NCBI GenBank assembly: GCA_963707955.1
Contig: OY970176.1
Span: 672,001-736,000 of the forward strand
Source: Candidatus Bathyarchaeota archaeon
GTDB lineage: Archaea > Thermoproteota > Bathyarchaeia > Bathyarchaeales > Bathycorpusculaceae
Length of the DNA: 64,000 bases
Reading direction: 5' to 3'
Shown here: piece by piece, positions 52 through 63,239 of the stretch
How positions within the stretch are numbered: the first letter of the stretch is position 1
Layout: each line of letters starts with the position of its first letter
Translations under genes and position numbers: made by a program
Notes under the pieces: generated by a model
The model's database searches: none
Told to the model about the DNA's origin: nothing
The model's input: only the letters and a program-made list of their open reading frames with translations

Positions 52-147
52 GGCTTGACTTACCAAGGTTGACTTCAGATCACAAGTGTACCTAGCACGT
101 ACTGGCGAATTCTCTCAGCTGCTTTTCGGTGAGTCCTTCTCCGCGCG

Positions 148-497
148 CGCTATAACTACTTGATTTTTGTCCGCTATTTGATGGGCACTGCTATCTGGTT
201 TCTCCATTTCATCGAATCGCGTAATATTTCTTTGCTTCTTTTGTGCCGAAATCAGATTTGATGTTCTTCCTAGATATTAGACCTCAAGAAGCCTTCAGAA
301 GAATACTGCAGACACGCAGAAAAAGGGAAATGTTTGAAAGCATGAATGAACTCCGCAAAGTCAGGGCAAAAGGGCTCTTGCTTCCGTTGATTGGCAAATG
401 GAAGATCATTGATGCAAACAAGTCAATAGAGGAAGTCGGAACGGAGATCCGCAAAAAGCTTGCGCTAGGAGATACCGCGCGCGCTCTCGTCCGCTGA
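148..497 (+). pseudogene. Thymidylate kinase-like remnant (5'-truncated, frameshift near 191, in-frame TAA at 222-224)
   Basis: RYNYLIFVRYLMGTA, shift, YLVSPFHRIA*YFFASFVPKSDLMFFLDIRPQEAFRRI...FE...IIDANKSIEEV matches the C-terminal half of dTMP kinases; the P-loop is absent. Confidence 0.65.
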
Positions 498-1625
498 TTC
501 GAAGCTGATTGCATTCTGTTTTCTATGTGACGCTTGGTAGTGAAGAGCCTGCACATGCTGTGAGTGGTTGTAGATCCAAGCTCCATTCTTGAAGAACTGG
601 TAAGGGATCGTCTCTCTTGACCATTTGCCCACTCGCAAGTCTTGAAGTACGTAGTCGTAACTCTCTAGGAGGTGTGCTCTCGCGAGGCTCGATAGGGCAT
701 CAATGAAGTTTCTGAATTCTTGTCGTGGAAGATAAATCTGTGAGACCAGCGAGTTTTCGTTCAATATCTTGCCCAGGATGAACACGAAGGGTTTGTTCAG
801 CAGAGATCGGGCAAACTTGCTCATTTTTTGTTTGTCGCTGAACTTGAAAGTGAAAAAGAGCATGTCGGAAGTTGCTCTATCAAACGGCAGTATGGCCATT
901 TGGAAAGTCTCGATCAGTCCATGTTTGACAACGTGTGTTTTGTAATGATAGCGTACATTCTGCAACGATGTTCCAAGTTTCCTGGCGATAGAGGCCAAGC
1001 TCACGGTTGCGTCTTTCTCCAGTTCCCCTATTATGAACATGTCAGTTTCATCAGCTCTCAAAGGAAAATCTCCAGGGTCCTTCAACGTGTAGGGCAATTC
1101 ATCATCCGCTGAAGAAACCTCCTCCAACCATTCTTTCCACCGAAAGAGCCAAGTCTCTCCTTCACCGTCAAACCAGTTTCTCGTAAGGTTAACCGTGTGA
1201 AAACAGGTAGACCAGGATAATTCAATGCTCTGTGTCACTCCCATTCTTTCTACCTCTTCGACGAAATCCTTGAATTCAGCCGTGTGCTCCACGGGAATCA
1301 CATAGATTCCCACGCATCCTTCAAACAGGCCGAAGCATCGGCTTAGGTAGATATAGAACTTGTTCACCTTCAGGCAGTTGAAAAGGAGATCCTCCTGCCC
1401 GGGAGTCGCTTTCGCAAAGACCACTGCCTTTTTCAGCCCGAGATTTGTGTGATAAACGGTCGTACCCAGATTCAGGAAAAAAAGCGAGGACATGCGTTCT
1501 ATCCTTGATACCACCGTTCCTCTCGGCATGTCGAGTTCTCTTGCGACCTTTGAGATGTTTCTTGGACCGTATTCTGCAAGACCCTCGAGGACTTTGATGT
1601 CACGGCTGTCAAGGTTAGCGGGCAT
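465..1625 (-). CDS. Tandem (double) Lrp/AsnC-like winged-helix transcriptional regulator
   Basis: Two HTH modules (DIKVLEGL..GPRNISKVARELDMPRGTVVSRI; DMFIIGELEKDATVSLASIARKLGTSLQNVRYH), each followed by a ferredoxin-like segment. Confidence 0.8.
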   Translation of the reverse strand: MPANLDSRDIKVLEGLAEYGPRNISKVARELDMPRGTVVSRIERMSSLFFLNLGTTVYHTNLGLKKAVVFAKATPGQEDLLFNCLKVNKFYIYLSRCFGLFEGCVGIYVIPVEHTAEFKDFVEEVERMGVTQSIELSWSTCFHTVNLTRNWFDGEGETWLFRWKEWLEEVSSADDELPYTLKDPGDFPLRADETDMFIIGELEKDATVSLASIARKLGTSLQNVRYHYKTHVVKHGLIETFQMAILPFDRATSDMLFFTFKFSDKQKMSKFARSLLNKPFVFILGKILNENSLVSQIYLPRQEFRNFIDALSSLARAHLLESYDYVLQDLRVGKWSRETIPYQFFKNGAWIYNHSQHVQALHYQASHRKQNAISFESADESARGIS

Positions 1626-1641
1626 TCTTTCCTCGCCTCTA

Positions 1642-1806
1642 TCAAGCTCGTTTGGACTTCGTTATTAACTTTATGGTCCAACTGGTGTGTTGATCGGATC
1701 TGCGTGTGCCTTCACAGAGGCAAGAGACAAGGCAACCAAGCCTATTTGAAGCACTATCACGATTGCCTTCCAGTGTCGAGTTACAAACGTTCTCCAGTTC
1801 AAGCAT
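1642..1806 (-). CDS. Small Cys-containing peptide (54 aa) directly upstream of the Lrp-like regulator
   Basis: Perfect anti-SD match GGAGGTGA just before ATG 1806; reads MLELENVCNSTLEGNRDSASNRLGCLVSCLCEG...; stop lies 16 bp before the regulator start. Confidence 0.55.
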   Translation of the reverse strand: MLELENVCNSTLEGNRDSASNRLGCLVSCLCEGTRRSDQHTSWTIKLITKSKRA

Positions 1807-1816
1807 ATCACCTCCT

Positions 1817-1860
1817 TTTATTTTTGTCGACAAATAAGCCTTAGCTTCGACAAAAATAAA
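1817..1860. promoter_or_regulatory. Perfect 14-bp inverted repeat (putative operator) next to a TATA box in a divergent promoter
   Basis: TTTATTTTTGTCGA-N16-TCGACAAAAATAAA, immediately followed by GCTTATATAT. Confidence 0.7.
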
Positions 1861-1893
1861 GCTTATATATGTTCTATTCTAGAACTAAACTCC

Positions 1894-4832: not shown

Positions 4833-5807
4833 ATGATAAGTCCGTTGAAAACCATAGGTGTTGTAACGAGCGGCGGTGACGCGCCGGGCATGAACGCTGC
4901 CATCCGGGCTATAACTCGCATAGCCTATTCGAAGAACCTTCAGGTTCTAGGTTTTGAGAGAGGCTGGGAAGGCTTGATAACGAACAGCTCTAGACCACTG
5001 ACCCCCAGATCCGTCGGCGGCATAATACAGCTCGGCGGCACGATTCTGCACACGTCAAGATCCTTAGAGTTCAAGACGCCAGAAGGCATCAACAAGGCCG
5101 CCGAAACTCTTGCTTCAAGAAGCATTGACGCACTCGTGGTCATCGGAGGAAACGGCTCCCTTCACGGAGCATTGGACTTGAGCAGGGAAACAGACAGTCT
5201 CATAGTCGGAGTGCCAGCGTCGATCGACAACGATGTCTTTGGAACAGACGAAACGATAGGCTTCGACACGGCTTTGAACACCGCAGTCAATGAAATCGAC
5301 AAGATAAGAGACACAGCCATCTCACACGAGAGGATCTTCATAGTTGAGGTCATGGGGCGAGCAAGAGGCTTCCTCGCAGCAACCGTGGGGCTGACGGTCG
5401 GAGCAGAGATAATCTTGGTTCCGGAGGTTAAGGTTGAAACGAAAAAAATCGTCGAAAGACTAGAAGAGAACAGCGCCAAAGGAAAAAAATCGGGCATAAT
5501 AGTTGCAGCAGAGGGAATCGGAGACACACGCAAGCTCGGAGAAGACATCGAGAAAGAAACGCGAACAGAGGTCAGGCTGACCGTCCTAGGCTACGCTCAA
5601 AGAGGAGGAAGCCCTTCGGCCAGAAGCCGACTTCTAGCTAGCCTCTTTGCAAACGAGGCCGTTGAGCTGGCCACGAAAAATCGAGGAAACAGAATAGTCG
5701 GACTCCAAAACGGCAACGTAACGAGCATGGACCTCGAAAAATCATGCAGCAAAGAGAAGCCTCTAGACTTGAACCTGTTGAGTCTGGCAAACGTGCTGGC
5801 AACTTAA
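4833..5807 (+). CDS. pfkA: ATP-dependent 6-phosphofructokinase, PfkA family
   Basis: TSGGDAPGMNAA, GGNGS (Gly at the phosphoryl-donor position), PASIDND, EVMGR, LGYAQRGG. Confidence 0.9.
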   Translation: MISPLKTIGVVTSGGDAPGMNAAIRAITRIAYSKNLQVLGFERGWEGLITNSSRPLTPRSVGGIIQLGGTILHTSRSLEFKTPEGINKAAETLASRSIDALVVIGGNGSLHGALDLSRETDSLIVGVPASIDNDVFGTDETIGFDTALNTAVNEIDKIRDTAISHERIFIVEVMGRARGFLAATVGLTVGAEIILVPEVKVETKKIVERLEENSAKGKKSGIIVAAEGIGDTRKLGEDIEKETRTEVRLTVLGYAQRGGSPSARSRLLASLFANEAVELATKNRGNRIVGLQNGNVTSMDLEKSCSKEKPLDLNLLSLANVLAT

Positions 5808-5908
5808 GACCTCACGAAATTTGCATCGACGCACAGTGTACAACGTTCGTCTGTGCCATCGAAGCTGCATGCTGTGGAAAGCAGCGTTGAGCACGAGTTG
5901 GCAAATTC

Positions 5909-6937
5909 TTAGCCAAAAAACAGGCTTGCTATGTCGTAGAGTTCCAGATCCACCGGTTTCCTCTTTCCGACGACTTCCTTAAGCGGAACGGACACTATCT
6001 TGTTTCCTTTGATGGCGACCATACGGTCAAACTTTCCCTCATGAACCAGGTCTATAGCTGCGATTCCGAATCTCGTGGCCAATATCCTGTCGAAGGCTGT
6101 CGGGGAGCCGCCCCGCTGAAGATGGCCCAGAACGACGACCCGTGTTTCGATGTTCAAGCATTTTTCGATTTCCTTGCCGAGGTAGTAGCCAACGCCTCCC
6201 AAGCGGATGTGGCCGAACTCGTCGACGCTTTCGCTGTAGACAATTTCAACGCCGCCTTTAGGTTTGGCTCCTTCGGCAACGACTATTAGGCTGAAGTTTC
6301 TGCCTCTCCTCTGTCTCTGTCTGATGCACTCACACACTTCGTCTATGTCGAAGGGTTTCTCAGGGATCAGTATGACGTCTGCGCCGCCGGCTAATCCAGC
6401 TTCTAACGCTATCCACCCGGTGTATCTGCCCATGACTTCGAGGATAATCACCCTGTGATGTGTCTCGGCCGTCGTGTGAAGCCTGTCCAGCGCCTCGGTG
6501 GCAACGCCGACCGCCGTCATGAAGCCAAACGTGTAGTCCGTCCCAGCCAAGTCGTTGTCGATGGTTTTGGGCACGCCGACACACTTGAGTCCAAGCTCGC
6601 CCATCTTCTGGGCTACGCTCAGAGTGTCGTCCCCACCGATGACAACAAGGGCTCCGATGCCAGCCGTTCTCGCGTTCTCCATAATTCTTTCAAATCCCTT
6701 TTCTCTCTTGAAGGGGTTCGTTCTAGAAGTGCCCAGAATTGATCCTCCCCTAGGGAGAATGCCTGAAGCTGCCTTAAGATCTAACGACAAGTATTCGCCT
6801 TCGATGAGTCCAGCCCAGCCGTCCTTTATGCCGATTATCTCGTAGCCGTAGTTCTGTATGCCCTTCTTGACCACGGCTCTTATGACGGCGTTGATTCCGG
6901 GAGCGTCACCGCCTCCGCTTAAGACTCCAACCTTCAT
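5909..6937 (-). CDS. pfp: PfkA-family phosphofructokinase, predicted PPi-dependent
   Basis: GGGDAPG, GGDDT (Asp) and PKTIDND (Lys) are the PPi-type signature; start reassigned to ATG 6937. Confidence 0.85.
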   Translation of the reverse strand: MKVGVLSGGGDAPGINAVIRAVVKKGIQNYGYEIIGIKDGWAGLIEGEYLSLDLKAASGILPRGGSILGTSRTNPFKREKGFERIMENARTAGIGALVVIGGDDTLSVAQKMGELGLKCVGVPKTIDNDLAGTDYTFGFMTAVGVATEALDRLHTTAETHHRVIILEVMGRYTGWIALEAGLAGGADVILIPEKPFDIDEVCECIRQRQRRGRNFSLIVVAEGAKPKGGVEIVYSESVDEFGHIRLGGVGYYLGKEIEKCLNIETRVVVLGHLQRGGSPTAFDRILATRFGIAAIDLVHEGKFDRMVAIKGNKIVSVPLKEVVGKRKPVDLELYDIASLFFG

Positions 6938-6953
6938 TCGGGCGGTTCTCCAT

Positions 6954-7871
6954 TCAAGCTCTCCCAGAGCTTCCGAACAAGCGCATCTTGCCCCTGACAA
7001 CCTCTTTCATAGCTTCTTTCGCTGGACCCAAGATCTTCCTCGGGTCAAACTCTTTCGGCAAGTTTGCGAGCACCTCGCGAACTGTTGCCGTGAAAGCGAG
7101 ACGCAAGTCCGTGTCGATGTTTATCTTCGCGATTCCCATCGAAATGGCCTTTTTTATCTGGTCTTCAGGGATGCCCTTCGCTCCGGCAAGCTCCGCCCCG
7201 TACTTACTCGCCTTCTCAATGAGCCAAGCTGGAACGCTCGAAGCTCCATGGAGAACGAGCGGTACGTACACCCTGTCGCTTATGGCTTTAAGTCTTTCAA
7301 AGTCAAGTTTGGGTTCAGCCTTGAACTTGTAAGCTCCATGAGACGTGCCGACTGCCACTGCCAGAGCGTCGACGCCGGTGCGCTCCACGAATTCTCTAGC
7401 TGAGTCAGGGTCCGTTAGAATAGCCTCTTTTTCCTCAACGGTTTTCTCCTCAACTCCAGCCAGTCTTCCAAGTTCCGCCTCAACCGCAACTCCTCTTGGA
7501 TGCGCAAGGTCAACCACACGCTTGGTCAATGCGATGTTTTCTTCAAACTTCAGATGAGAACCGTCGATCATGACCGACGTGAACCCTGCTCCTATACACT
7601 TGGAGACCGTGTCGAAGTCTTCGCCATGGTCAAGGTGAAGCGACATTGGAACTGCACACAATTCTGCTGCTGTTTTGACTATTTTTGAAACGTAAGGCAG
7701 GCCAGCGTATTTGACGGCGCTTGGCGTCACAGCAACTATGGCGGGTGATTTTTCTTCGACAGCTGCTTCCGAAACTGCCAGCAACGTTTCTAAGTTGTTT
7801 ATGTTAAAGGCCCCCACTGCATAGGCTCTCTGGCGTGCTGGAACCAGCAGGTCCTTGTTTGTGACAAGCAG
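6954..7871 (-). CDS. fba: Class II fructose-1,6-bisphosphate aldolase; probable CTG start
   Basis: YAVGAFN, HLDHG, FTSVMIDGS, VEAELG, GTSHGAYK, LVLHGAS, KINIDTD, FDPRK. Confidence 0.93.
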   Translation of the reverse strand: MLVTNKDLLVPARQRAYAVGAFNINNLETLLAVSEAAVEEKSPAIVAVTPSAVKYAGLPYVSKIVKTAAELCAVPMSLHLDHGEDFDTVSKCIGAGFTSVMIDGSHLKFEENIALTKRVVDLAHPRGVAVEAELGRLAGVEEKTVEEKEAILTDPDSAREFVERTGVDALAVAVGTSHGAYKFKAEPKLDFERLKAISDRVYVPLVLHGASSVPAWLIEKASKYGAELAGAKGIPEDQIKKAISMGIAKINIDTDLRLAFTATVREVLANLPKEFDPRKILGPAKEAMKEVVRGKMRLFGSSGRA

Positions 7872-8000
7872 GACTTTCCACCGTTGATGGAATATTGATT
7901 GCGAACGGTATAAATGGTTTGCACGTACAAACAGGTTAGTTTGGCCTTGCATTTCTTTTTAAACTCAAGAACACAACAAAACAATGTGCTCGACAAGAAC

Positions 8001-8909
8001 ATGGAGCGAACGGTTGTGAAAACAGTTAGCAGAGACAGAGTAATCTACAGCTTCAATCCTCAACACGACCCAGCTGAGCACGTAACTCCCGGCGAAATTA
8101 TTCTGATCGAAACCGAGGATGCCTTCAGCGGTCAGATCAGGAGCGAGAAAGATTCAGTAAATGTGCTCGACTGGTCCAGAGTTGATGGAGCTACGGGCCC
8201 CATATTCGTTGAAGACGCAAGACGAGGGGACACTCTTGTCGTTGAGATACTTGAAATAAAGGTTCCGAAGAAAGGCGTGATAGTCACCGTTCCCAAGTGT
8301 GGAATTCTGGCAGAAAAAAGGTTCAGACCTTCATCCAGAATCGTCAAGATAAGCAGGAATCACGTGAGTTTCGAAAGCGTTCAGGTCAGAGCAAACCCAA
8401 TGATAGGCACTATAGGTGTGACTCCTGAAAGCGGTGAAATCCCCTGTGGTTCTCTAGGCAAGCACGGAGGCAACATGGATGTTAAGGAGATGACCGCCGG
8501 CACCAAGCTGTACCTACCAGTTTTTGTCGAAGGCGCCCTGTTCGCACTTGGCGATGTTCACGCGGTCCAAGCAGATGGGGAGCTGTGTGTCTCAGCAGTT
8601 GAAGTGCCCGGAGAGATTCTGTTAAGGTTTAAACTCATAAAGCGAAAGAAGCCCCAATGGCCGATACTCGAAACAAAGGATTCGTACGCTTTTCTGGCGT
8701 GTGGAGAAACGCTGGATGAGGCGGCAAGGTTTGCAGCTGAGGTTGCGGTGGAGGCTTTCATGCGCGAGCACCATTGGTCCTTCGAGACTGCTTACATGTT
8801 TGGCAGTCTTGCCATAGATCTGAAGATAAGTCAGGTTGTTGATCCGAAGAAGGGTGTCAGAGCGGTGGTTTCGAAAGATCTCATAGACCTGAACAGCTTG
8901 CTCGTCTGA
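8001..8909 (+). CDS. Acetamidase/formamidase family protein
   Basis: TGPIFVEDARRGDTL, PMIGTIG, HGGNMD, GDVHAVQADGE, SQVVDP; exact start uncertain. Confidence 0.88.
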   Translation: MERTVVKTVSRDRVIYSFNPQHDPAEHVTPGEIILIETEDAFSGQIRSEKDSVNVLDWSRVDGATGPIFVEDARRGDTLVVEILEIKVPKKGVIVTVPKCGILAEKRFRPSSRIVKISRNHVSFESVQVRANPMIGTIGVTPESGEIPCGSLGKHGGNMDVKEMTAGTKLYLPVFVEGALFALGDVHAVQADGELCVSAVEVPGEILLRFKLIKRKKPQWPILETKDSYAFLACGETLDEAARFAAEVAVEAFMREHHWSFETAYMFGSLAIDLKISQVVDPKKGVRAVVSKDLIDLNSLLV

Positions 8910-8972
8910 GGAATGTATGTTGTCAGAAAATCTTGAACTCACGAAAGATCATTTAGGCTTTGGGGATTTGTT

Positions 8973-9176
8973 GTGACCTGCTATTTTAGGCATCTTCAAG
9001 AGGTTTTCAAGAAGGCAGGGATAAGAGTTACTGAAGAGAACAAGAGAGAAGTTGACAAGATTATTCATAGAATTGTAGGTGTCAAATACAAGGATTGTCC
9101 TGCAACTTGGAAAGAAGTGAAAAGGAGAGTCAGCGAAGACGAGGAAGGCTTCGCTTCACGGCTCAGGGATGAATGA
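8973..9176 (+). CDS. Small hypothetical protein
   Basis: 67-aa charged helical ORF (MTCYFRHL...CPATWKEVK) filling the intergenic gap. Confidence 0.65.
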   Translation: MTCYFRHLQEVFKKAGIRVTEENKREVDKIIHRIVGVKYKDCPATWKEVKRRVSEDEEGFASRLRDE

Positions 9177-9244
9177 ACAAGCATGGATAATCGAGCGCAG
9201 TCAAGAAAAAGCAAGCGCGCGACGAGCGCGCCGACGATCAAGTT

Positions 9245-9385
9245 CTACTTGCTTTTTACCTTTTTCATCGGTTGTTCGCAGCACATCAGCTCGCACGTTG
9301 GTTCGCATCCACATGGCTGATCAACGAGGACAACCAGACCGCACTCCTCGCACTTGTACTTCTCACCTTTAGCTTTCTTCGCCAT
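9245..9385 (-). CDS. Desulforedoxin-like small metal-binding protein (46 aa; not in ORF track)
   Basis: MAKKAKGEKYKCEECGLVVLVDQPCGCEPTCELMCCEQPMKKVKSK has YKCxxCG...LxCCxxPM; GGAGGTGG RBS. Confidence 0.8.
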   Translation of the reverse strand: MAKKAKGEKYKCEECGLVVLVDQPCGCEPTCELMCCEQPMKKVKSK

Positions 9386-9571
9386 TCAAACCCACCTCCC
9401 GCCTCTTTTCTACGTATGAACCCATACATTTTTTGAGGTATAAAACTATTTTCAAAACGTGTCGTTCGGCTGGGCTCTCTGCTTCAACAAGTAAAGTCAA
9501 ATTCTAGCGCGCGCGCTTGCACCAAATAACGCTCTGGACCGCGCGCGCCCCCTTGAGCTGCAGAACAAGAA

Positions 9572-9874
9572 CTACATCTGCGCAGAATCTTGATCTTGGC
9601 CCGCCTTTTTTGCGTGCCTAGTTTTCGTGCTTTGGTTGGCCAGTTCGAGTTTCTGCGTGTGGTTCAGTCTCTTGATTCTTTTCTCCCTCTTCATGGCCTC
9701 TGCCCTTGAGCTGTGCTTCTCGAAGTAGATGAGCTTTTGTGGCTTATGCATCCTCGTGTACCTGGCACCCTTGCCTTTCATGTGAAGGTTGATTCGCCTG
9801 TTCAGGTTTTTCGTGTAGCCTGTGTAGATGTTGTTGCCTTCGCAGAGAATGACGTAAACGTAAAAAGGCCTCAT
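9572..9874 (-). CDS. GIY-YIG nuclease family protein (UPF0213-like)
   Basis: YVYVI..IYTGYT.NL.RR..H..GKGARYT; A.KRE..IK. Confidence 0.9.
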   Translation of the reverse strand: MRPFYVYVILCEGNNIYTGYTKNLNRRINLHMKGKGARYTRMHKPQKLIYFEKHSSRAEAMKREKRIKRLNHTQKLELANQSTKTRHAKKAGQDQDSAQM

Positions 9875-10003
9875 ACTTGATCGTTGCTTTTCAGCAGGGC
9901 AGTTTTCCTTTTCAGTTAAGATATGATTTGCTTCCTGATCAAGGATAAAAACTTATAAGAAAATCTTGATGATAGGCTGTAAAATCGGTCTAACTGCTTT
10001 AGG

Positions 10004-10204
10004 ATGGTTCATGTGACGAAGCTGAACAAGGTAGATGAGCTTGTGGTTTCGACGTTGAAAGACGCTGGCAAGGGTTTAACGCTTGCGGAGATCGCTGAGA
10101 AAACTGGCGAGTCTCCGAAGAAGGTCTACAAGTCTCTGCGGAAGCTTTTTGAGAACGAGATGGTCGACTGTTTGAACCGCCAGTACAGACTCTTAAAGAC
10201 GTAG
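10004..10204 (+). CDS. Small winged-helix DNA-binding protein
   Basis: LTLAEIAEKTGESPKKVYKSLRKLFENEMV. Confidence 0.75.
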   Translation: MVHVTKLNKVDELVVSTLKDAGKGLTLAEIAEKTGESPKKVYKSLRKLFENEMVDCLNRQYRLLKT

Positions 10205-10221
10205 ACCGCGGGTTTCGTTGA

Positions 10222-10389
10222 CTATTTTTCTTCTTTCTTTTTCTCGGTGACGGCTTCTTTTGCCCCTTTTCCGAACGCTTTAACAACGCCGAATCCTTTC
10301 TTAATCCCTTTTCCGACGGTTTCGCCTGCTTTGCCGGCTGCTTCTTCGGCTTTTCCCTTCTTCTCTTCCTCTTTGGTTATGATGTCCAC
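10222..10389 (-). CDS. Small Lys/Glu/Gly/Ala-rich amphipathic (LEA/hydrophilin-like) protein, ~55 aa (not in ORF track)
   Basis: ...KGKAEEAAGKAGETVGKGIKKGFGVVKAFGKGAKEAVTEKKKEEK*; start uncertain. Confidence 0.6.
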   Translation of the reverse strand: MDIITKEEEKKGKAEEAAGKAGETVGKGIKKGFGVVKAFGKGAKEAVTEKKKEEK

Positions 10390-10790
10390 TTCTTGTAACA
10401 CCTTTTAATGGTTGGGGCTCAATTTTAATGTTTTTGGAGATCGTCTCCAGCTTGCTTAAGTAGTGTGGACGTTACTTGAGAGGTTACAATATTCCCTGTT
10501 TCGTGTTTCTCCTAGTCTAACAGGCTTACCTCCCCGGGTTTTTCGCGGCAGGTGCCGTTAGCGAGTCTTTGGCGGATAATGCTGAGGTGTTGCCGCTGGT
10601 TGGCACGCCGTTTCCAACATATAGTTAAGAGCGAGTTGATGCATCTGCGTCCAGTCAAAACATTTTCCTGGCGAAAGTTGTTTCACGGAGACTCCTGGTG
10701 GGGTGTTTGCGGAGTGAAGTTGGATTTCATGTCCAAGGAGAATTTTTAAAGCTTAATGATGCATAGAACTCGTTTGCAAGAGGGACAAAT

Positions 10791-11597
10791 GTGTCTTCTT
10801 CTCATGAAAATTCGGTGAAGAAGTATTATGATGATAAAGGTTCGACGTATGATGATTATTCCAAACAGTTGTGGAGCAGAGTGTATGATGCCGTAACGTG
10901 GAAGATTACAGAACCTTATGTTCCTAAGAATTCTGGAGCTCTTGTCTTTGATGCCGCCGGTGGAACTGGAAAATGGACTATTCCTATCGCAAAGTGCGGT
11001 CCAAGAGTGGTCTTAGGAGACATTTCTCGAGGGATGCTGAAGGTTGCGGAAGAGAAGATAGTCCAGCAGGGGCTGCAAGACCGAGTGCAAGTCAAAGAAT
11101 GCGATGTGCGTAAACTCGATTTTAGAGACGAGACGTTTGACCTCGTGTTCTGTGAACACGCTCTTTGTTTCATCAAGGAACAGGAAACTGTCATAAAGGA
11201 ACTGGTTAGAGTTCTGAAGAAAGGTCATCCCTTAATCTTGACCGGTCAGAACTGCTACGTGTTGGCGCTTTCATTAGTCTCGGAAGACGCTGATTATGCA
11301 TCCAAGGTGTTGTCAAAGGAAACCCCGTTTATCATGCGTAACAGTCTGGAAGTCTATGCCCTGTCACCTCAGGAGTTCATGCAGATGCTGGAGAACAACG
11401 GGTTGAGAGTAGACAGGATCGTGGGAAAACTCTTCACTATGCCCCTCGGTTTTTCCTGGGAGAGGTTGACAAGTGAAGAATTCACTGAGGAGCTCTTCGA
11501 CAAAATAGTGCGCGTTGAACTTGAGTTAGCTAACAGACCAGACACAGTCTGTCTCGGCTCACATTTTCAAGCAATAGGACACAAAAACCGTTCTTAG
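10791..11597 (+). CDS. Class I SAM-dependent methyltransferase
   Basis: VFDAAGGTG, GDIS.GML, FDLV, ELVRVLKKG. Confidence 0.9.
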   Translation: MSSSHENSVKKYYDDKGSTYDDYSKQLWSRVYDAVTWKITEPYVPKNSGALVFDAAGGTGKWTIPIAKCGPRVVLGDISRGMLKVAEEKIVQQGLQDRVQVKECDVRKLDFRDETFDLVFCEHALCFIKEQETVIKELVRVLKKGHPLILTGQNCYVLALSLVSEDADYASKVLSKETPFIMRNSLEVYALSPQEFMQMLENNGLRVDRIVGKLFTMPLGFSWERLTSEEFTEELFDKIVRVELELANRPDTVCLGSHFQAIGHKNRS

Positions 11598-11657
11598 TCA
11601 TACGTAAAATCCCCTTTGGGACGCTGAGCGCGCGCGCAAATGTAGGCTGCGAAGCGA

Positions 11658-11861
11658 ATGGTGACAGACAGCATGTCATCGATCACTATTTTGGTGCCGC
11701 CGCCTACTTTAGCTATTCTGGCGATCTTGACCTGTCTTCCAATAGTGCTTATTGAATTCAATGCTTTCAATTTCATTGCTGTAGCCGTTGGCATTATGAT
11801 TATGGGGTTATGTTTTTGGAGGCTGGCACTGAAGATTAAGCAATACGTATGTCGAGACTGA
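11658..11861 (+). CDS. Possible small two-TM membrane protein
   Basis: Two hydrophobic stretches; no recognisable family. Confidence 0.35.
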   Translation: MVTDSMSSITILVPPPTLAILAILTCLPIVLIEFNAFNFIAVAVGIMIMGLCFWRLALKIKQYVCRD

Positions 11862-11945
11862 TAGCGTGGCCATTGTTTTTCAAAAAAAGAATAGCCAGTG
11901 TGTGGGGTAAAGTTTTTTCCCGACGCAACAACGCGAATGCGAGGC

Positions 11946-12284
11946 TTAGATCAATCGGACTTCCGCGCTTGTCGGCAGATTAGTTTGTTTTCGTTTCTTT
12001 GCGGCTTGCCAAAGGTTTTGAATGGTGTTCTGAAAGATCTCCCTTTCCTTGGTAAGGATTTCGACAGAATCTACGAGTTCCTCCTTTTGAACACGCAACT
12101 TTTTCGTTTCTTCTCGAAGCTGCCAGATTCTTCGTTTGGACGCTTTCGTCTCCTTTCTTAACTCTGCAACCTCTCTTCGAAGCGTCTCCACCTGGCCAGT
12201 CAAGACATTCATGTACGCCTTTAACTCATCGTTCTGCTTCTGCAACTCTTCGTATTTGGACTTCCGAGCTAGACCGAAGACCAA
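11946..12284 (-). CDS. Coiled-coil protein
   Basis: Heptad pattern (YEELQKQNDELKAYMNVLTGQVETLRREVAELRKE); start reassigned to TTG 12284. Confidence 0.65.
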   Translation of the reverse strand: MVFGLARKSKYEELQKQNDELKAYMNVLTGQVETLRREVAELRKETKASKRRIWQLREETKKLRVQKEELVDSVEILTKEREIFQNTIQNLWQAAKKRKQTNLPTSAEVRLI

Positions 12285-12516
12285 AGCAGGTTCCCCCGAC
12301 ACGTAAGCATTGCAGCAAAAGATATAAAAATAGCGGGAGGGGGCTTTTGAGCAGAGTTTTATCTCAAACACGCACTTCTTTCTTTCCTTCTCACATTGTC
12401 TCTTTCTCTTTCCTTCTTTTCCTTACTACATACAAATAAACAAAAACAAAAAAGCGCGTGCAGAAAGTTTTAATCTCAAAAACTTTTTAGCTGTGAACGA
12501 TGCCCTGGGTTTTTGT

Positions 12517-13305
12517 ATGCCTGTGCGGGGATGTGAAACAACGAGAGGAAAACCAGCGTTTGGACTGCTTGTGCTATTTACAGTACTGATAATCTCTGCC
12601 GGAGCAGCTTCAATCCGAGCGCAGGGGGTGACGGCGGGTGTTCAAGCCGGAAACTACTTCACGTACAAGGTTAACTATGCATCAAGCAGTAGCACCCTGT
12701 ATGGTGTCGATAATTTCACGGAAACCGTAACCCAAGTAAACGAGACACTAGGTTATCATGTCGTCTGGTACAGTGAACTTTTACACTTCAGCAACGGAGC
12801 CAAGGAAACAAATTCAGGCAGCGTGATCCTAGAAAACGGGGGTAATATGGAAAGCAGTGATACGGCCCAAGAAGGCCTGTTCTTCAGTGCCAACCTGCAA
12901 GTCGGCGACCCAATCACCCCGGTCTCGACATTCGGCGTAAATGAAACGATATCTGTAAACGGAAGGCCGACGAATCATGCGAGCGGAGACTTGAACTATT
13001 CCGTCTCCAATACAATAATAACTGATACATATGAGTACTACATTGATCAAGTCACTGGAGCGGTAGTCAACGAAACGGGGAGCGCCGCAGTCACTGGACA
13101 ACCGACGACGTCTTACAGCTTCAGCCTGATAGCGACGAACGTGTGGAACGTCGTACCTGAATTTTCCCCGATAGCTTTGACGCTCACTATGCTACTGCTA
13201 ACCGCAAGCGCCGCAATAATTGTCTCCCGCAGAAAGGCAAAACAACCCTTCTGCAACCCGACAACATCCAAAGAAACGAAACGCGCGCGTCTCATTGCTA
13301 CCTAG
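12517..13305 (+). CDS. Secreted Thr/Ser/Asn-rich surface protein with PEF-CTERM sorting signal
   Basis: Signal peptide, several N-x-S/T sequons, C-terminal VPEF + TM helix + RRK. Confidence 0.8.
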   Translation: MPVRGCETTRGKPAFGLLVLFTVLIISAGAASIRAQGVTAGVQAGNYFTYKVNYASSSSTLYGVDNFTETVTQVNETLGYHVVWYSELLHFSNGAKETNSGSVILENGGNMESSDTAQEGLFFSANLQVGDPITPVSTFGVNETISVNGRPTNHASGDLNYSVSNTIITDTYEYYIDQVTGAVVNETGSAAVTGQPTTSYSFSLIATNVWNVVPEFSPIALTLTMLLLTASAAIIVSRRKAKQPFCNPTTSKETKRARLIAT

Positions 13306-13420
13306 TATCATCAGTAATTGTCTCTCAGACAATAACCTTTTCTCAGTAGCTGTTGCCGTGCCGATTTAAGTGTGTGTTTGAGGGCAAAGTTTTATAGTTC
13401 TGAAATGGTTGAGTCCTCTT

Positions 13421-13737
13421 GCGGTGGGTCTTAGGCGGGGGGCTAGGGGTCCCCTGTACCGTAAACCCTCTATAGGACGGGCCGAAAGCTGGGGCTGAGG
13501 CGTTTAAGGCTGCTGAGGCCTTCATTTCCGAAGCGAAGACTATCCGTCCCTTGGGGCTGGCGGTCATTAGGCGGGTTCCCGTAGGGGAGCTGTCTTTAGT
13601 GTTGACCAGGCGAACTTGGCCAGGACCGGGAGGGAGCAACCTAAGTCTGGGCGTTCAGCGCTCAGGGGGGTGCGGGTACGAGTGTAGGGTCTGAGGGTTC
13701 AGCGGAGTCTGAGCGTCGATCTCCTGTGGCCCACCGC
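13421..13737 (+). ncRNA. ffs: Archaeal signal recognition particle (7S) RNA
   Basis: Paired ends GCGGTGGG/CCCACCGC, Alu-domain GGGGGGCTAGGGGTCCCCTGTA, helix 6 CCC-GTAG-GGG, helix 8 CAGGACC-GGGA-GGGAGCA, upstream TTTATA, downstream T-run. Confidence 0.93.
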
Positions 13738-13850
13738 TCTTTTCTGTGAAACGATTCCGAATCCGTAATCAATCAAACTCGTTTCCATCGGCATCTAGAA
13801 AATGATAAATGCCGTGAAGGTTTATTCTGGTGTTAACAGGAAGCTTAGGC

Positions 13851-17843: not shown

Positions 17844-17859
17844 ATGTTCTCAGACTCAC

Positions 17860-18582
<723 letters not shown>

Positions 18583-45747: not shown

Positions 45748-45832
45748 TTCTTTCTAAATAGCTTGCCACGCGCGCTTCATCAATAGCGCAAACGCCAGAC
45801 AGACCCTCGACCACACAAGAGCGTGCATGCAT

Positions 45833-45893
45833 GTTCCTAAATCAGCGTGGGCTAACACATAACAAAAATCACCTCATGAGCGAATTTAGGAAC
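45833..45893. mobile_element. MITE-like element with 14-bp imperfect terminal inverted repeats
   Basis: GTTCCTAAATCAGC ... GCGAATTTAGGAAC; the same motif recurs at 47322/47449 and 62978. Confidence 0.45.
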
Positions 45894-46092
45894 GGTAATA
45901 CGCACCAGATGCACACGTAAGTCTCCTACGATATCCAAAAGAGTGTTCTTAAATGGTGCTGCTTGCGTTGGAATCTATTAATGATGCGTGAATTCATTAT
46001 GCCTAACATCGAGCGTGCTTTATGCTGGAATCACAAAAGCATTGATCTGCTTGAGCTCCCACGAAAAGGGTTTTGTCCAAGCAAGAAATGGT

Positions 46093-47253: not shown

Positions 47254-47321
47254 CCTTATCCCATATGCCTAGGAAGTTGGGACTTAGAGTTAAAGCTTGT
47301 CATATGCGTAGCGCGCTAGCG

Positions 47322-47462
47322 TGTTCCTAGATTGGCTTCTTCAAGTGCGGCCTGATTGATCCGTGCTTATGAACGATGCTTCACGCGTCTGGAGTCACAG
47401 GGCCATCATGTATCTGACAGAGCCAACGGCGGAAGCCAACATAGCAAACGAATTTAGGAACA
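47322..47462. mobile_element. MITE-like element, same inverted-repeat family as 45833
   Basis: TGTTCCTAGATTGG ... CGAATTTAGGAACA. Confidence 0.45.
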
Positions 47463-47476
47463 GCCATGCGCCTAAG

Positions 47477-47665
47477 AAGGGGAGACGGTCGAGCACATCG
47501 AAAAGTTACTACCCTTGCCAGATCCTTTGCGAAGCGCTCTGCACGCGCTCGGCTTCAAGCCCATACAAATCCAGTAGGGCCTTCACCAACGCCTACGTGC
47601 AGTACTAGCACCCTAGGGGGGAGGGTAAAATAGACGAGGCCAAAACGCGAACACAGGGATGTAGC
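47477..47665 (+). mobile_element. Degenerate IS-like remnant (transposase-like C-terminus plus right end), copy 1
   Basis: GETVEHIEKLLPLPDPLRSALHALGFKPIQIQ*, then ~90 bp ending GGGATGTAGC; homologous to 57061-57270 (inverted). Confidence 0.55.
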
Positions 47666-50307: not shown

Positions 50308-51629
50308 TCGACGCAATGAGTAAAACGGAAGAGATCATCAAGAAAGCGAAAGTGCTAGGCGCTGACGAAGTTATCGCCAGTACAGTTTTTGGCAAGTACC
50401 GTCAGGTCCGCTTCAGCAACAACCAAATAGACATAACCGTTGCTTGGAACGATTATGCGACTGATGTGATCCTGGCCTGGAAGAAACGCGTGGTTGCAAC
50501 ACAGATACACAACTTCCGCGAATTCGATGCCAGCCTCAGGCAACTGATGAAGCTTGTGAAGGTTTCTAAAGAAAATCCGACCTTCGGAGGCTTCGCAAAA
50601 GGCACTTTTCGCTATGCGAAGAGCAGGGCTGACAAGAAGATTGAAAACCTAGAGAACCTGACGGATCACGTTTCTGCAGCGATAGAAGCCGCCAAGAAAG
50701 AAGCTGGATCAAAGGTCGAAAGCGGTGGCATACTCCTTGCCAAATTTGAGGACGTTTACTTCGCTTCTTCTGAAGGACCGGCCGGCGTGGACACGAGATC
50801 AGCGATCGAGCTTTCTATCAGGGCTTTTTCGGAGAGAGAAGCCTCGGGGCATGGTGTTGAATGCAGCTCAACGCTGAGAGAGTTTGAACCTTCTAGGGCA
50901 GGAGCAAAGGCTGGCGAGATTGCCAAGATGGCTAAGAACCCAAGTTTAGGCGATGAGGGCGTTTATGATGTTGTCTTTGACCCGTTGATTTTCGGTTCTC
51001 TGCTCGGAGTTTGGGCCGGGATGGCTTCGGCCTACTCGATTATGACGCGGACATCCATATTCGTTGACAAGCTCGGCAAAGATGTGGCGCCTGAAATCGT
51101 GACGTTGAAGGACAACCCTGCTCCCTACTCACTGTCCAACAGGGTCTTCGATGACGAAGGTGTTCCGACAAGAGAGAACATTTTCATAGACCACGGCTCC
51201 TTCAAGACCTATCTTCATAATGCGTCGACAGCGAAGATCTTCAAGACCGAGACAACTGGCAACGCGGGCTTGATTGCTCCAACTCCATGGAATGCAGAAA
51301 TGGAACCTGGAGACGCGAGCAGAGAAGAGCTCTTTAAAGAAATGAAGAGGGGGCTTTACCTGACTAACACGTGGTACACGCGCTTCCAAAACTCTGCGAA
51401 GGGTGATTTCTCAACTATTCCCAGGGACGGCGTCTTCCTCGTAGAAAAGGGAGAGATTAAACGGTCGCTTAAAGACCTGCGAATAAGCGATAACGCATTA
51501 GCCATGCTTGGCAACATTGCGGGTGTTTCAAGAGAGAGGCAGCACGTCCACTGGTGGGAGGAAGCAGACCCACCGTCGCTAAGCCCCTACGTCCTGATGA
51601 AAAACGTGCACATAACCAAGTCTAAGTAA
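50304..51629 (+). CDS. tldE: TldE/PmbA subunit
   Basis: FDDEG, TTGNAG, GDFS; lacks HExxxH; ATGA-coupled to tldD. Confidence 0.9.
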   Translation: MIDAMSKTEEIIKKAKVLGADEVIASTVFGKYRQVRFSNNQIDITVAWNDYATDVILAWKKRVVATQIHNFREFDASLRQLMKLVKVSKENPTFGGFAKGTFRYAKSRADKKIENLENLTDHVSAAIEAAKKEAGSKVESGGILLAKFEDVYFASSEGPAGVDTRSAIELSIRAFSEREASGHGVECSSTLREFEPSRAGAKAGEIAKMAKNPSLGDEGVYDVVFDPLIFGSLLGVWAGMASAYSIMTRTSIFVDKLGKDVAPEIVTLKDNPAPYSLSNRVFDDEGVPTRENIFIDHGSFKTYLHNASTAKIFKTETTGNAGLIAPTPWNAEMEPGDASREELFKEMKRGLYLTNTWYTRFQNSAKGDFSTIPRDGVFLVEKGEIKRSLKDLRISDNALAMLGNIAGVSRERQHVHWWEEADPPSLSPYVLMKNVHITKSK

Positions 51630-51788
51630 GCACTGACAGTTTTCCTATTCCATCTTGTCCAGAATGCTACGTCAGTTAGCACATGCTTGCAACATCAATC
51701 TTCTTGAATTCTTCCTGATTATGCTGTCCAAAATCCTTTTACCTGTGACTTCTTGCTTATTCCCTCTTGCGTTGGAGTTCAACTAGTC

Positions 51789-56982: not shown

Positions 56983-57060
56983 GAAGAGGCTTTCAGCAGT
57001 AGACTGTGCCTTGGCGATTGTTTATGATTGCTTCAAGGATGCAACTGTTTCGTGGAATAC

Positions 57061-57270
57061 GCTACATCCCTGTATTCGCGTTTTGGCCCCGTCTATTCCA
57101 CCCTCCCCCTCCCCCTAGGGTGTTAGTACTGCACGTAGGCGTTCGTGGAGGTCCTAGTGGATTTGTATGGGCTTGAAGCCGAGCGCGTGTCGAGGGCTCC
57201 GCAGAAGGTCTGGGCAAGGGTCGTAACTTTTCAATACACTCTACTGTCACGCCATTTTCTGGTTTCATGT
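57061..57270 (-). mobile_element. Degenerate IS-like remnant, copy 2
   Basis: NGVTVECIEKLRPL, shift, PDLLRSPRHALGFKPIQIH*; same terminus GGGATGTAGC as 47665. Confidence 0.55.
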
Positions 57271-61105: not shown

Positions 61106-61136
61106 CGCCGAGTTTAGATGCGTCTGCTGTGGCTTT

Positions 61137-62423
61137 TTAGATTTTTCCAGTTGCCTTGTACTTGTCCAGTAGTTCTTGGGCTCTGTCCATTCGAATCTTA
61201 CGCTCTTCAACCATCTTCGCTGCGACTTTGTCGATGAGTTCGCCTGTGGCACCTGCCATTACAGCTATGTTTCTCGCGTGGAGTGACATGTGTCCACGCT
61301 GTATTCCTTCATTAGCCAATGCACGAAGAGCTCCGAGGTTCTGTGCCAGACCAACAGCCGCACATACCTCGCCGAACTCGTTGGCAGTCTTCACTCCTAG
61401 AATCTTGACGGCGATTCTCGCAATCGGATGAGTTTTAACGGCTCCTCCTATGAGGCCGACTGCCATAGGCAGTTCAATTGAGCCTACGAGGTCACCGTTC
61501 TCGTTTTTCTCCCATGTTGACAGCGACGTGTAGTGGCCGCTGACAGCTGCGTAGGCGTGGGCCCCCGCTTCGATTGCGCGGTGGTCGTTGCCTGTTGCGA
61601 CTATCACGGCTATTATGCCGTTCATGATTCCCTTGTTGTGAGTCGCTGCACGGTATGGGTCTGCTGCTGCGAAGGCGTACGCGCTCACGATGGCGTCCAC
61701 GACTTCTTCGCCGCCCACGGATTTCTTCGGCACGACGCATGAGGCTCTGACCAAGCGTTTTGTCGCGAGGTTGGAGATTATTCGGAGGTAGACGCGTCCG
61801 CCTGTTATGCGTTCGATTAATGGCCCTACTGCTTCATTCATCGTGTTGACTGCGTTTGCTCCCATGGCGTCTCGGCAATCGACGTGCAGTTCGGTTATGA
61901 GCATGGGGCCTTGCGTGGTGCTGATTACTTTTGCGTCTAGGTCTCTTGCGCCGCCTCCGGCTGAGACCAGCACTGGGTCTTGGTCGTTGGCTTTTCTCAG
62001 GATTTCGTCTTTCGCTCGTATGACGCGCATCTTAGCGGCGTGGGGGTCTTTGATGCCTACGGCTTGTATTTGTCCGATCATGATGGGCGGTGTGCTGCTT
62101 GTGTGAAAGCCTCCTCCGTCCCTCACCATCTTCGCAGCGTAGCTCGCAGCTGCCACGACTGAAGGCTCTTCAATAGCCATGGGAATCAGGTAATCACGAT
62201 CGTTAATGAGGAAGTTGACGCCAATTCCCAGAGGTATCGGAATGGCGCCGACGACGTTTTCTATCATACGGTCAGCGAGGTCGAGAGGAAGAGAACCTGT
62301 GTTCTGCAGTAAAGCGGCTTCCTTCTCCGTCAGATCGGAGAATTCTTTAACAAACGCTAAGCGTTCTTTGGGACTCAGTTTGTAGAAGCCTGAAGCCAAG
62401 GATGATTTGTTCATACTTGCCAT
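61137..62423 (-). CDS. mvaA: HMG-CoA reductase, class II
   Basis: ENVVG, EEPSVVAAAS, DAMGAN, ISNL, THNKGIMNG, GND.RA.EAG, GIQRGHM.LH. Confidence 0.95.
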   Translation of the reverse strand: MASMNKSSLASGFYKLSPKERLAFVKEFSDLTEKEAALLQNTGSLPLDLADRMIENVVGAIPIPLGIGVNFLINDRDYLIPMAIEEPSVVAAASYAAKMVRDGGGFHTSSTPPIMIGQIQAVGIKDPHAAKMRVIRAKDEILRKANDQDPVLVSAGGGARDLDAKVISTTQGPMLITELHVDCRDAMGANAVNTMNEAVGPLIERITGGRVYLRIISNLATKRLVRASCVVPKKSVGGEEVVDAIVSAYAFAAADPYRAATHNKGIMNGIIAVIVATGNDHRAIEAGAHAYAAVSGHYTSLSTWEKNENGDLVGSIELPMAVGLIGGAVKTHPIARIAVKILGVKTANEFGEVCAAVGLAQNLGALRALANEGIQRGHMSLHARNIAVMAGATGELIDKVAAKMVEERKIRMDRAQELLDKYKATGKI

Positions 62424-62555
62424 CTTCTCCTCTTGTGCGATTCAAGACATGTTTACCATCGACCTTTAAAGCTTAGCGGAATTCAGGGTTTCTGTTGTTA
62501 ACCAGCCTGCGCGACAAGCTTGATTTTCCGCTTGGGTTGCAACTGTGTTCTATGG

Positions 62556-62909
62556 TCATTTGAGCATGTCTTCTGTTGGCTCTTCAAAGTAAGGTGGAAA
62601 CACCCATCTGCCGAAGAAGAACTCGTCAACGAAGACCAGTTTGTCTTCACTTATCCAAACGCAGGAGCATCTGTGCACGTTATCGAGCTTCGCCGAGGTG
62701 TCCAAATTGATGAGTCTGGCTAAAACAGAATGCAAGCCTTCGTGTTCCAACACGTTCAGCAGACTGTAAACCGTGAAGAATCCCCGTCGCCTGTGCCAGT
62801 AAACGTTGATGGTACTGAGCTCCAAACTGTCAACCCAGCCGCCTCCAAGAAAATCCCGACGCTTGGGATTCTTCAAGATTTCTCTTTCACTGGGAACTCT
62901 AACGTCCAT
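62556..62909 (-). CDS. Small hypothetical protein with HExxH motif
   Basis: VLEHEGLHSVL helix. Confidence 0.5.
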   Translation of the reverse strand: MDVRVPSEREILKNPKRRDFLGGGWVDSLELSTINVYWHRRRGFFTVYSLLNVLEHEGLHSVLARLINLDTSAKLDNVHRCSCVWISEDKLVFVDEFFFGRWVFPPYFEEPTEDMLK

Positions 62910-63007
62910 CGAACAGGCCTCCTTCGCTCAAGATACGCGGTTCTATAAAAATCCTCTCAACGTTGAGCGCGCTGGCTTGTCCCTAAATTCGCTGATAACG
63001 CATTTTC

Positions 63008-63046
63008 AAAAGCATATACAAAAAGCATATACATTTTGCATATACA
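63008..63046. repeat. Three tandem 13-bp direct repeats
   Basis: AAAAGCATATACA AAAAGCATATACA TTTTGCATATACA. Confidence 0.8.
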
Positions 63047-63239
63047 GTTAACTAGATTGTTGAAGGCGCCTCGGGCTAAGGTTGCATACGGAGCTGTTTG
63101 GCATGTTCAAGGACTTGGCTTCTGAGGGTTGGTGGACGTTACGAACGCTTGTTGTCGCGCGCGCGTTCGATTGCATGGGTCAGACAGCATGACGAGATCC
63201 AATGTCCGTTTCCTTAAGGTCGCGCGAGTAGCTGATGTG

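Follow-up and report, generated by a model that had tools for sequence, protein, structure and literature searches.

The closed genome of a Candidatus Bathyarchaeota archaeon (G000; a single contig of 2,346,764 bp) carries many short tracts of alternating G and C, which we followed from a 64,000-bp stretch (bases 672001-736000, hereafter the window) to the whole genome and its relatives. A tract is defined here as an alternating G/C run of at least 8 bp, and shorter runs of 6-7 bp are counted separately. The tracts are most likely scars at DNA joints and not functional sites. Our preferred explanation, to which we assign a probability of about 0.5, is that these scars stem from the activity of a transposon with GC-tipped ends and are possibly sealed by a Ku-LigD operon. 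Judging from its sequences, an IS5-type insertion sequence (IS) with a family of miniature inverted-repeat transposable elements (MITEs) is probably active in the genus.

The tracts are strongly over-represented. A sequence-only reading of the window had listed 16 alternating runs of 8-10 bp, and a script run over the window recovers all of them at the same positions and no further run of at least 8 bp. The nine 6-7-bp runs that it listed are also present, together with eight unlisted ones within coding DNA or the 16S rRNA gene (4251, 20101, 34898, 35952, 35965, 38273, 40810 and 56340). The window has a GC content of 49.5% and a CpG observed/expected ratio of 0.95. The estimate that about one long run is expected by chance was right, as an order-1 Markov model of the whole genome gives ~53 such 8-mers per 2.35 Mb, or ~1.4 per 64 kb. 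Against these ~53, the genome has 455 runs of at least 8 bp, and the octamer GCGCGCGC occurs 464 times where 28 (order 1) or 34 (order 3) are expected. Counts of maximal runs fall from 7871 at 4 bp through 1774 at 5 bp and 510 at 6 bp to 186 at 7 bp, rise to 267 at 8 bp, and end with 130 at 9 bp, 56 at 10 bp and 2 at 11 bp; the profile has a bump at 8 and a hard stop beyond 10-11. Among the 8-mers, 231 start with G and 36 with C. The G-started ones are flanked by A at -1 (166), T at +1 (162), T at -2 (99) and A at +2 (88), so that the motif reads as the palindrome (T)A(GC)4T(A), less often with (GC)5. The 9-mers have the canonical flank on a single side and resemble 8-mers with one irregular flank. 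Intergenic A(GC)nT is found 50 times at n=3, 92 times at n=4, 17 times at n=5 and not at all at n=6.

The tracts avoid genes. Of the 455, 378 (83%) are wholly intergenic, 13 straddle the end of an open reading frame (ORF) and 64 lie in called ORFs, according to a crude ORF and codon-usage picker that called 2415 genes (82% coding) and missed overlapping ones. The intergenic share is 17% for four-base GC runs, equal to that of the genome, and 27% for other GC-only 8-mers. In the window, 13 of the 16 tracts are outside called ORFs, two (476 and 13282) are in ORF tails and one (11628) is in a doubtful ORF, which agrees with the earlier statement that none is inside a conserved domain. Density is similar in divergent (0.89 per kb), convergent (1.23) and tandem spacers (0.81), or about one tract per 1.1 kb of intergenic DNA. 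The intergenic tracts of G000 keep no fixed distance from starts or stops, with a slight surplus in the first 20 nt beyond stop codons (58 of 372 distances); a promoter or terminator element is ruled out by this lack of a positional rule. The tracts are scattered round the genome with only 14 pairs within 60 nt, too few for close pairs to act as hairpins. Their flanks are unique, since the 910 flanks of the tracts form only 15 clusters of two or three, and the idea that tracts are the ends of one multi-copy element was dropped on this result. Intergenic AGCGCT (83 against 128-192 expected) and TAGCGCTA (0 against 5-7) are depleted. We considered whether this marks consumed targets and draw nothing from it, because the tracts themselves inflate the Markov expectation.

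The excess is confined to the genus and does not extend to the wider clade, in line with the lineage specificity proposed at the outset. The octamer GCGCGCGC is found 29-434 times in 10 of 10 other genus genomes, scaling with genome size and completeness, and 0-14 times in 26 of 30 genomes of the same family or order outside the genus. The exceptions are G024 (227), G030 (53), G019 (30) and G039 (19). G024, from another genus of the same family and with 40% GC, has similar A/T-flanked GC runs of up to 13 bp. In relatives' metagenome-assembled genomes (MAGs), an absence means "not found", subject to MAG incompleteness. An assembly artefact is unlikely as the source of the tracts, because the genome is one closed contig, the same excess is present in all ten other genus assemblies and Logan contigs bridge tracts. 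These contigs run across seven tracts of the window with 0-1 differences, and the best run may be the source sample, in which case they are not independent. They bear on contiguity, which they confirm, and not on excision. One Logan contig (X4) jumps 110 nt within a MITE; with only 24 nt on one side, it is weak.

Tracts at DNA joints and a GC-tipped element

Comparison with a relative, G001, places the tracts at breakpoints. G001 (24 contigs, C1-C24; 2,179,637 bp of ~2.4 Mb; a MAG with 6% contamination) is ~95% identical to G000, and G007 is ~93% identical. The 378 intergenic tracts were compared with 1500 random intergenic control sites. Only 19 tracts (5%) are collinear and of the same length in G001, against 649 controls (43%; Fisher p=5e-54). 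One flank alone has a G001 homologue in 39% of tracts and 18% of controls, and neither flank has one in 37% and 28%. With site-spanning queries, homology ends within 3 nt of the site for 88 of 378 tracts and 48 of 1500 controls. Tracts therefore coincide with ends of homology about seven times more often than controls. Together with tracts at derived deletion joints and at the ends of an inversion and of duplications, this supports the core proposal of the sequence-only reading, that they are junction scars of a lineage-specific process. Tracts also decay between close genomes, mostly by CpG transitions such as GCGCGCGC to GCGCACGC; alleles in G001 include GCGCACGC, GCGCAGGC and CGTGCGCG. Cytosine deamination would be a fitting cause of such decay, even though a search of G000 for a C5 methyltransferase gave no match.

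The same association appears in individual rearrangements. Collinear G000/G001 blocks are separated by 97 simple indels of at least 50 bp. The joint of the short allele has a tract in 22 of them, a 6-7-bp run in nine and neither in 66, whereas a tract is present in 3.0% of 40-nt windows drawn at random from intergenic DNA and in 0.6% of those drawn genome-wide. Replacement-type gaps have a G000 tract within 5 nt of the border in 25 of 130 cases. Among duplicates of at least 300 bp within G000, 24 of 128 ends are within 5 nt of a run of at least 6 bp, against 0.9% of random positions. Small replacements without any element are also seen, namely GGACG to (GC)5, CG to CGCGCGCG, and 13 nt to 11 nt. 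At G000:2228399 the long allele is present in G001 and G007 (~295 bp) and in G009 (~113 bp), and at G000:2020237 it is present in G001, G007, G009, G003 and G002. Because several relatives carry the long allele, the tract allele is a derived deletion at these two loci and at window position 9540. Relatives are rearranged at G000:1674349, which is uninformative. A 277-bp block (G000:1674076-1674352) with tracts on both sides in G000 is 94-97% identical in G001, G004, G007 and G009, whereas G004 and G009 are otherwise only ~70-78% identical to G000; the block may be mobile or represent a small conserved RNA. The long alleles of the 22 scarred indels have a GC run at the border in eight cases and none in 14. 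Cleavage at pre-existing GCGC/CGCG with fill-in, one of the routes first suggested, is consequently not supported as a general explanation.

A mobile element with GC tips resides in the same genomes. Many 6-bp runs are followed by a recurrent sequence that forms a terminal inverted repeat (TIR), TA followed by GCGCGC-WW-GC-N-TGTTCCTAAATT, of which at least two variants exist (GTCCCTAAATT and GTTGCTAAATY). Pairs of TIRs bound MITEs of 130-320 bp (~200 bp); G000 has 28 of them and the fetched contigs of G001 have 33, and TIR-like matches in G000 number 99-124 altogether. MITEs are flanked by TA on the left in 31 of 61 cases and on the right in 25 of 61, a preference that is not strict and resembles that of the solo tracts. 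Counted over the six most frequent left dinucleotides, the base at -1 is A in 44 of 61. Nearly all 122 MITE ends have a 6-bp tip, while solo tracts measure 8, 9 or 10 bp; clustering the flanks of the longer tracts missed the MITEs for this reason. In both sequence and flanks, the tracts thus resemble the ends of an element that resides in the genome, and a transposon footprint was one of the origins named in the sequence-only reading. The element itself is represented by a 1080-bp IS at G000:389080-390159, flanked by TA on both sides, with a 23-nt TIR at both ends and ends identical to those of the MITEs. Its reading frames match PF05598 (DUF772; 42 bits) and PF01609 (DDE_Tnp_1; 56 and 70 bits), all above the cut-offs, and the IS is assigned to the IS5 family because both domains are matched. 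Intact transposase ORFs of 341 and 329 aa are found in G003 and G009, with the left end shared with the G000 IS. In G001 (C1:139371-141572), a 2.2-kb segment has one good and one degenerate GC-tipped TIR where G000 has a 9-bp tract. The segment contains a 271-aa ORF that looks like a SAM-methyltransferase by eye, not by Pfam, which suggests that GC-tipped elements can carry passenger genes.

Empty, filled and scarred states are all seen at orthologous sites, but at different loci. Sites without any GC run face TIR-bounded elements at G000:723628 (a 172-bp MITE in G001) and G000:1008184 (4.8 kb), and in the other direction G001 is empty and has no GC run opposite 605 bp at G000:378627. Since the empty sites have no GC run, the element brings its GC tips along, and target duplication is not their source. 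At four loci, a MITE in one genome faces a GC run of 7-9 nt in the other. A MITE on G001:C3 (G000:1435565) faces CTA-GCGCGCGC-TAC in G000, and MITEs at G000:256990, G000:430607 and G000:1936369 face TGCGCACGC (in G001), GCGCACGC and CGCGCGC (in G001), respectively. Outgroups are uninformative for the polarity at G000:430607. The MITE at G000:256990 recurs in G007, a more distant relative, but neither G001 nor G010 (GGGCAAC) has it. Here the element was lost in two lineages and a remnant left, and the GGGC of G010 is a decayed left tip.

Tracts and other features of the window

In a BLAST comparison of window positions 5001-25000 with five relatives, alignments break exactly at 9540, 11629 and 22126. 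Block borders against G001 fall at the tracts 9540, 11629, 22126 and 42199, at a MITE end (47480) and at a solo TIR tip (62971); the G001 block borders at 3295/3561 and 10454/10709 have no tract. The leftmost tract, CGCGCGCGC (142-150, 9 bp), is intergenic and ~75 nt upstream of a truncated thymidylate-kinase fragment, and neither of its flanks is found in G001. The fragment (225-497, + strand) lies between this tract and the next one and encodes the C-terminal third of the enzyme (Pfam profile 117-185 of 185). It is a truncated gene remnant because no N-terminal part is encoded upstream. The next tract (476-484, 9 bp) occupies the final codons of two convergent ORFs, beyond the Pfam domain ends. 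At 9507-9516, 5-6 nt (GGACG in G001, GGAAGG in G007) have been exchanged for a 10-bp tract, (GC)5. The 9-bp tract CGCGCGCGC at 9540-9548 is the derived deletion joint mentioned above, where gene-bearing DNA of ~3.3 kb in G001 has been lost. The long allele is also present in G003, G004 and G009 (3.4-4.4 kb), and G007 has a smaller nested deletion with the identical right border and its own GCGCGCGC. At the 10-bp tract 11628-11637, within a doubtful 66-aa ORF, homology breaks and other DNA follows in G001 (7.8 kb) and G007 (2.9 kb). The 8-bp tract at 13282-13289 lies within the final 8 codons of a 270-aa ORF without a Pfam match, inside a ~1-kb segment (12362-13377) that is missing from G007.

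Compared with G001 and G007, the central part of the window has the opposite orientation. The inversion of ~20 kb (22134-42198) is bordered by 8-bp tracts at its left (22126-22133) and right end (42199-42206); at the joint, G001 has no tract but 575 bp that include a small ORF. Inside it, the only 16S rRNA gene of the window (35791-37284) has no adjacent 23S rRNA within the window (Rfam scan). A further 8-bp tract (37697-37704) is in a 244-bp variable stretch where G001 has ~2.9 kb.

The tract at the right end of the inversion is also the left border of a 5.3-kb island (42207-47479) that is found in G000 and is absent from the fetched part of G001; a MITE forms its right border. Tracts at 42811-42819, 42900-42907, 43099-43106, 43936-43943, 44727-44734 and 45632-45640 and 6-7-bp runs at 42838, 43677 and 45769 separate the small genes of the island. 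One unit, a 585-bp cassette (43099-43683), is 100% identical to G000:1421017-1421601, and both copies have GC runs at both ends. Logan contigs break or have loose ends at the cassette borders. The cassette contains a CRS1/YhbY (CRM) domain gene (window 43138-43521 and G000:1421056-1421439), whose Logan depth is about double. A putative MITE remnant at 45821-45905 consists of two facing degenerate TIR-like sequences. The 163-bp MITE at the island's right border (47311-47473) has the TIR GCGCGC-TAGCGTGTTCCTAGATT, the first 6 bp of which are the run listed at 47311, and homology to G001 resumes at 47480.

Farther right, the empty site at 51628-51632 (G000:723628, see above) has no GC run, and the 172-bp MITE of G001 there has GCGCGC tips. 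A second dispersed repeat of ~210-280 bp (57057-57270) recurs at G000:378381-378589, in at least seven other copies and in G001. It begins with GTGGAATACGCTACATCCCTGTATTCGCG and carries a C-rich CCCTCCCCC stretch. It may be a MITE or an RNA, and the single border inspected has no GC run. A solo TIR on the + strand (62967-62989), GCGCGC-TGGCTTGTCCCTAAATT, has the listed 6-bp run as its tip, and G001 homology ends within it at 62971. The last tract (63156-63165, 10 bp) is in DNA with weak one-sided similarity to G001.

Origin of the tracts

In the transposon-scar model, insertion would deliver two palindromic GCGCGC tips to a site without a GC run, a step that is seen at the empty sites. The two tips would repeat each other in inverted as well as direct orientation. 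Once the body is lost, an event seen at G000:256990, an alternating GC run of 6, 8 or 10 bp would remain where the old flanks meet. The route of loss may be excision by the transposase with end joining, or a host microhomology or slippage deletion between the tips. Because the palindromic tips are also direct repeats, joining in register gives 6, 8 or 10 bp and never 12, and A(GC)nT counts that peak at n=4 and vanish at n=6 match this prediction for two 6-nt tips. A tip might also pair with that of another copy or with a distant site, and the resulting deletions, inversions and cassette duplications would have a tract at the joint; such larger changes might otherwise take several steps. A scar inside a gene would cause a frameshift and not persist, which would explain why 83% of the tracts are intergenic. 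An operon for nonhomologous end joining (NHEJ) is present outside the window at G000:957178-960233 (L179 9178-12233). It encodes a LigD primase-polymerase, Ku and an ATP-dependent ligase fused to a 3'-phosphoesterase (PF21686, PF02735 and PF01068+PF04679+PF13298), and its products would be the likely sealing machinery. Ku is found in 8 of 11 genus genomes and 2 of 30 outside. As indicators of genomes rich in tracts, Ku and LigD give only a partial match, and a link to C5 methylation was dropped as the closed genome has no PF00145 match, C5 being the only methyltransferase type searched.

Several observations weigh against this model. Across relatives, neither transposase nor TIR abundance predicts tract number: GCGCGCGC and TIR motifs number 359 and 1 in G009, 254 and 3 in G008, 128 and 0 in G004, and 227 and 1 in G024. 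The transposase is broken by a frameshift in G000 and by stops in G001, and no homologue was found in G004, G008 or G024. Samples of G024 (86 kb) and G009 (38 kb) show no flank that recurs beside the GC runs. In G024, runs of up to 13 bp exceed what two 6-nt tips allow, and an IS with a DDE transposase has AT-rich ends without GCGCGC. A TIR is at the border of the long allele in 6 of 22 scarred and 9 of 66 unscarred indels (p=0.19), and 16 of the 22 have none. Deletions with a full tract but with an element in no relative need two or three steps. At G000:339435, 1080221, 2203619 and 522495, the A beside the tract is not in the ancestral flank; it would have to come from the element end, otherwise the model does not predict it. 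At two of the four MITE/run loci, parsimony favors a MITE that entered an older run: at G000:1435565, G000 and G010 have the run, G007 has it in decayed form and only G001 has the MITE, and at G000:1936369 the MITE is in G000 alone with CGCGCGC in G001 and CGCGC in G007. Alternatively, the element was lost more than once at these loci. As for sealing, G016 and G040 have Ku and almost no tracts, and Ku and LigD polymerase were not found in G024, which has many. Therefore, MAG incompleteness permitting, NHEJ looks neither sufficient nor necessary.

These points keep a GC-filling process alive as a rival, because tract and MITE numbers are uncoupled, G024 has its own tracts and scarred indels show no significant excess of TIRs. 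Here a transposon-independent end-processing activity (a polymerase, nuclease or nucleotidyl-transferase) would cap or fill broken ends with A(GC)n, and the self-complementary tails would join. We hold this tentatively, as a possibility of clearly less than even odds. It would account for derived deletion joints whose ancestors lack both GC run and element, with a border run in only 8 of 22 long alleles, and for the extra A before the tract that is missing from the ancestor. Small replacements that happen without any element, G024's tracts without a GC-tipped IS and the two loci with an older tract and a younger MITE also fit, and G000 has a LigD primase-polymerase. The IS and MITEs would then prefer palindromes as targets, and duplication of the 4-bp GCGC in the middle of an 8-mer would give the 6+6 tips. 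However, the empty sites opposite GCGCGC-tipped MITEs have no GC run, so the tips belong to the element, and a tip length of 6 bp at almost every one of the 122 ends does not match solo tracts of 8-10 bp. We know of no enzyme that makes alternating GC filler, and none turned up in the literature searched (titles and beginnings of abstracts); the candidate, Ku-LigD, is present in the tract-poor G016 and G040 and was not found in the tract-rich G024. A bolder form, which we consider rather doubtful, is that this genus and, independently, genus g15 (G024) possess an undescribed end-joining chemistry that caps or bridges broken ends with a self-complementary A(GC)4-6 filler and stamps it on every illegitimate joint, be it a deletion, an inversion, a captured cassette or a transposon insertion. 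IS5-type elements would under that chemistry have acquired or exploited the stamp and not caused it.

Other explanations treat the tract itself as a site. A nuclease or recombinase that joins any two palindromes, with integron-like movement of cassettes, would suit the tracts at both ends of the 20-kb inversion, as a palindrome has no direction. It would equally suit the 585-bp cassette with runs at both ends of both copies, the nested deletions of G000 and G007 with one common border, and the island with a tract between almost every gene. We judge it unlikely, since tracts at borders that were ancestrally without one (14 of 22) cannot arise from the joining of sites already present, the 15 small clusters among 910 flanks leave no conserved flank for a recombinase to recognize, and G000 yielded no candidate enzyme, no C5 methyltransferase and no obvious partner. 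It is very improbable that the tracts are selected cis-elements that serve as protein-binding sites, as Z-DNA sinks or as boundaries or terminators between transcription units. The tracts are intergenic palindromes at about one per 1.1 kb with a slight surplus after stops, and (CG)n is a classic Z-DNA former. The conserved protein-binding or Z-DNA boundary role offered in the sequence-only reading is nevertheless not supported, given the absence of a fixed position, the similar density across spacer types, the near absence of tracts from sister genera with the same gene set and a conservation close to nil, as 5% are kept in place at 95% identity against 43% of random intergenic sites. Hardly any weight is left for a palindrome like cyanobacterial HIP1 that spreads by methylation-linked biased repair or point substitution. 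The proposed analogy with HIP1 holds for an over-represented, iterated palindromic octamer in one lineage and breaks down on mechanism: alleles differ by indels and replacements, with substitutions seen only as decay of existing tracts, 83% are intergenic whereas HIP1 fills genes too, and the closed genome has no PF00145 match. Overall, the interpretation given in the sequence-only reading is partly supported.

If the tracts are scars, they provide a readable record of breaks and rejoining, with hundreds of events per lineage since the split at 95% identity, from which the rate and kind of illegitimate recombination could be measured in an uncultured archaeal group. They would also be rare prokaryotic transposon footprints, with donor sites rejoined rather than lost. 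Such rejoining fits the Ku-LigD operon, a system that archaea seldom have. The tracts account for the truncated genes, island borders and cassette-like arrays seen here, and are practical markers of rearrangement joints for related MAGs. If filling with GC independent of transposons proves true, a new DNA-end chemistry is to be found.

Relation to known systems

The literature searched, at the level of titles and beginnings of abstracts, holds no description of GCGCGCGC enrichment in archaea, of GC filler at prokaryotic joints or of genome-wide prokaryotic MITE footprints. The earlier label "undescribed" stands to that extent and no further. Within the same literature, with ISfinder outside the search, no account of IS ends with a (GC)3 palindrome or of a scar population was found. 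As in cyanobacteria with HIP1 (GCGATCGC), a palindromic octamer is highly iterated in a lineage-specific manner. HIP1 is frequent within genes, linked to methyltransferases and spreads by substitution, while the motif here is intergenic, sits at indel joints and has no C5 methyltransferase found with it. Like REP and REPIN sequences, the tracts are short, GC-rich and intergenic, in hundreds of copies. REPs, on the other hand, are imperfect hairpins of 20-40 nt that are moved by RAYT and conserved as families, whereas the tracts share 8-10 bp only and have unique flanks. Nothing resembling an integron attC-type site is visible, as the flanks share nothing past 1-2 nt; no integrase search was made.

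The NHEJ operon has the full set of modules of the Ku-LigD systems that bacteria and a few archaea possess: LigD_Prim-Pol, Ku, and a ligase with its 3'-phosphoesterase. Known NHEJ joints contain single-nucleotide additions or duplicated overhangs. The joints here differ in their constant 8-10 bp of alternating GC, and Ku mismatches tract abundance outside the genus. In PMC6379672, NHEJ is described as yielding deletions, fill-ins and capture of foreign DNA.

The element agrees with the IS5 family and its MITEs in DUF772 plus DDE_Tnp_1, a length of 1.08 kb, TIRs, short TA-type flanks and MITEs of 130-320 bp. It departs from that family in ends that begin with a perfect (GC)3 palindrome. The eukaryotic kin of the IS5 family are the PIF/Harbinger-Tourist elements. 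Excision footprints of the eukaryotic Tc1/mariner, hAT and P elements likewise retain a few terminal nucleotides of both repeats between target bases. The likeness extends to a short palindromic scar and to filled, empty and scar alleles, here with TA on both sides in ~40%. The differences are the archaeal host, the IS5-family element and the putative status of excision by the transposase. In addition, the scars here outnumber elements about ten to one, and many of them mark large deletions, inversions and duplications rather than simple empty sites.

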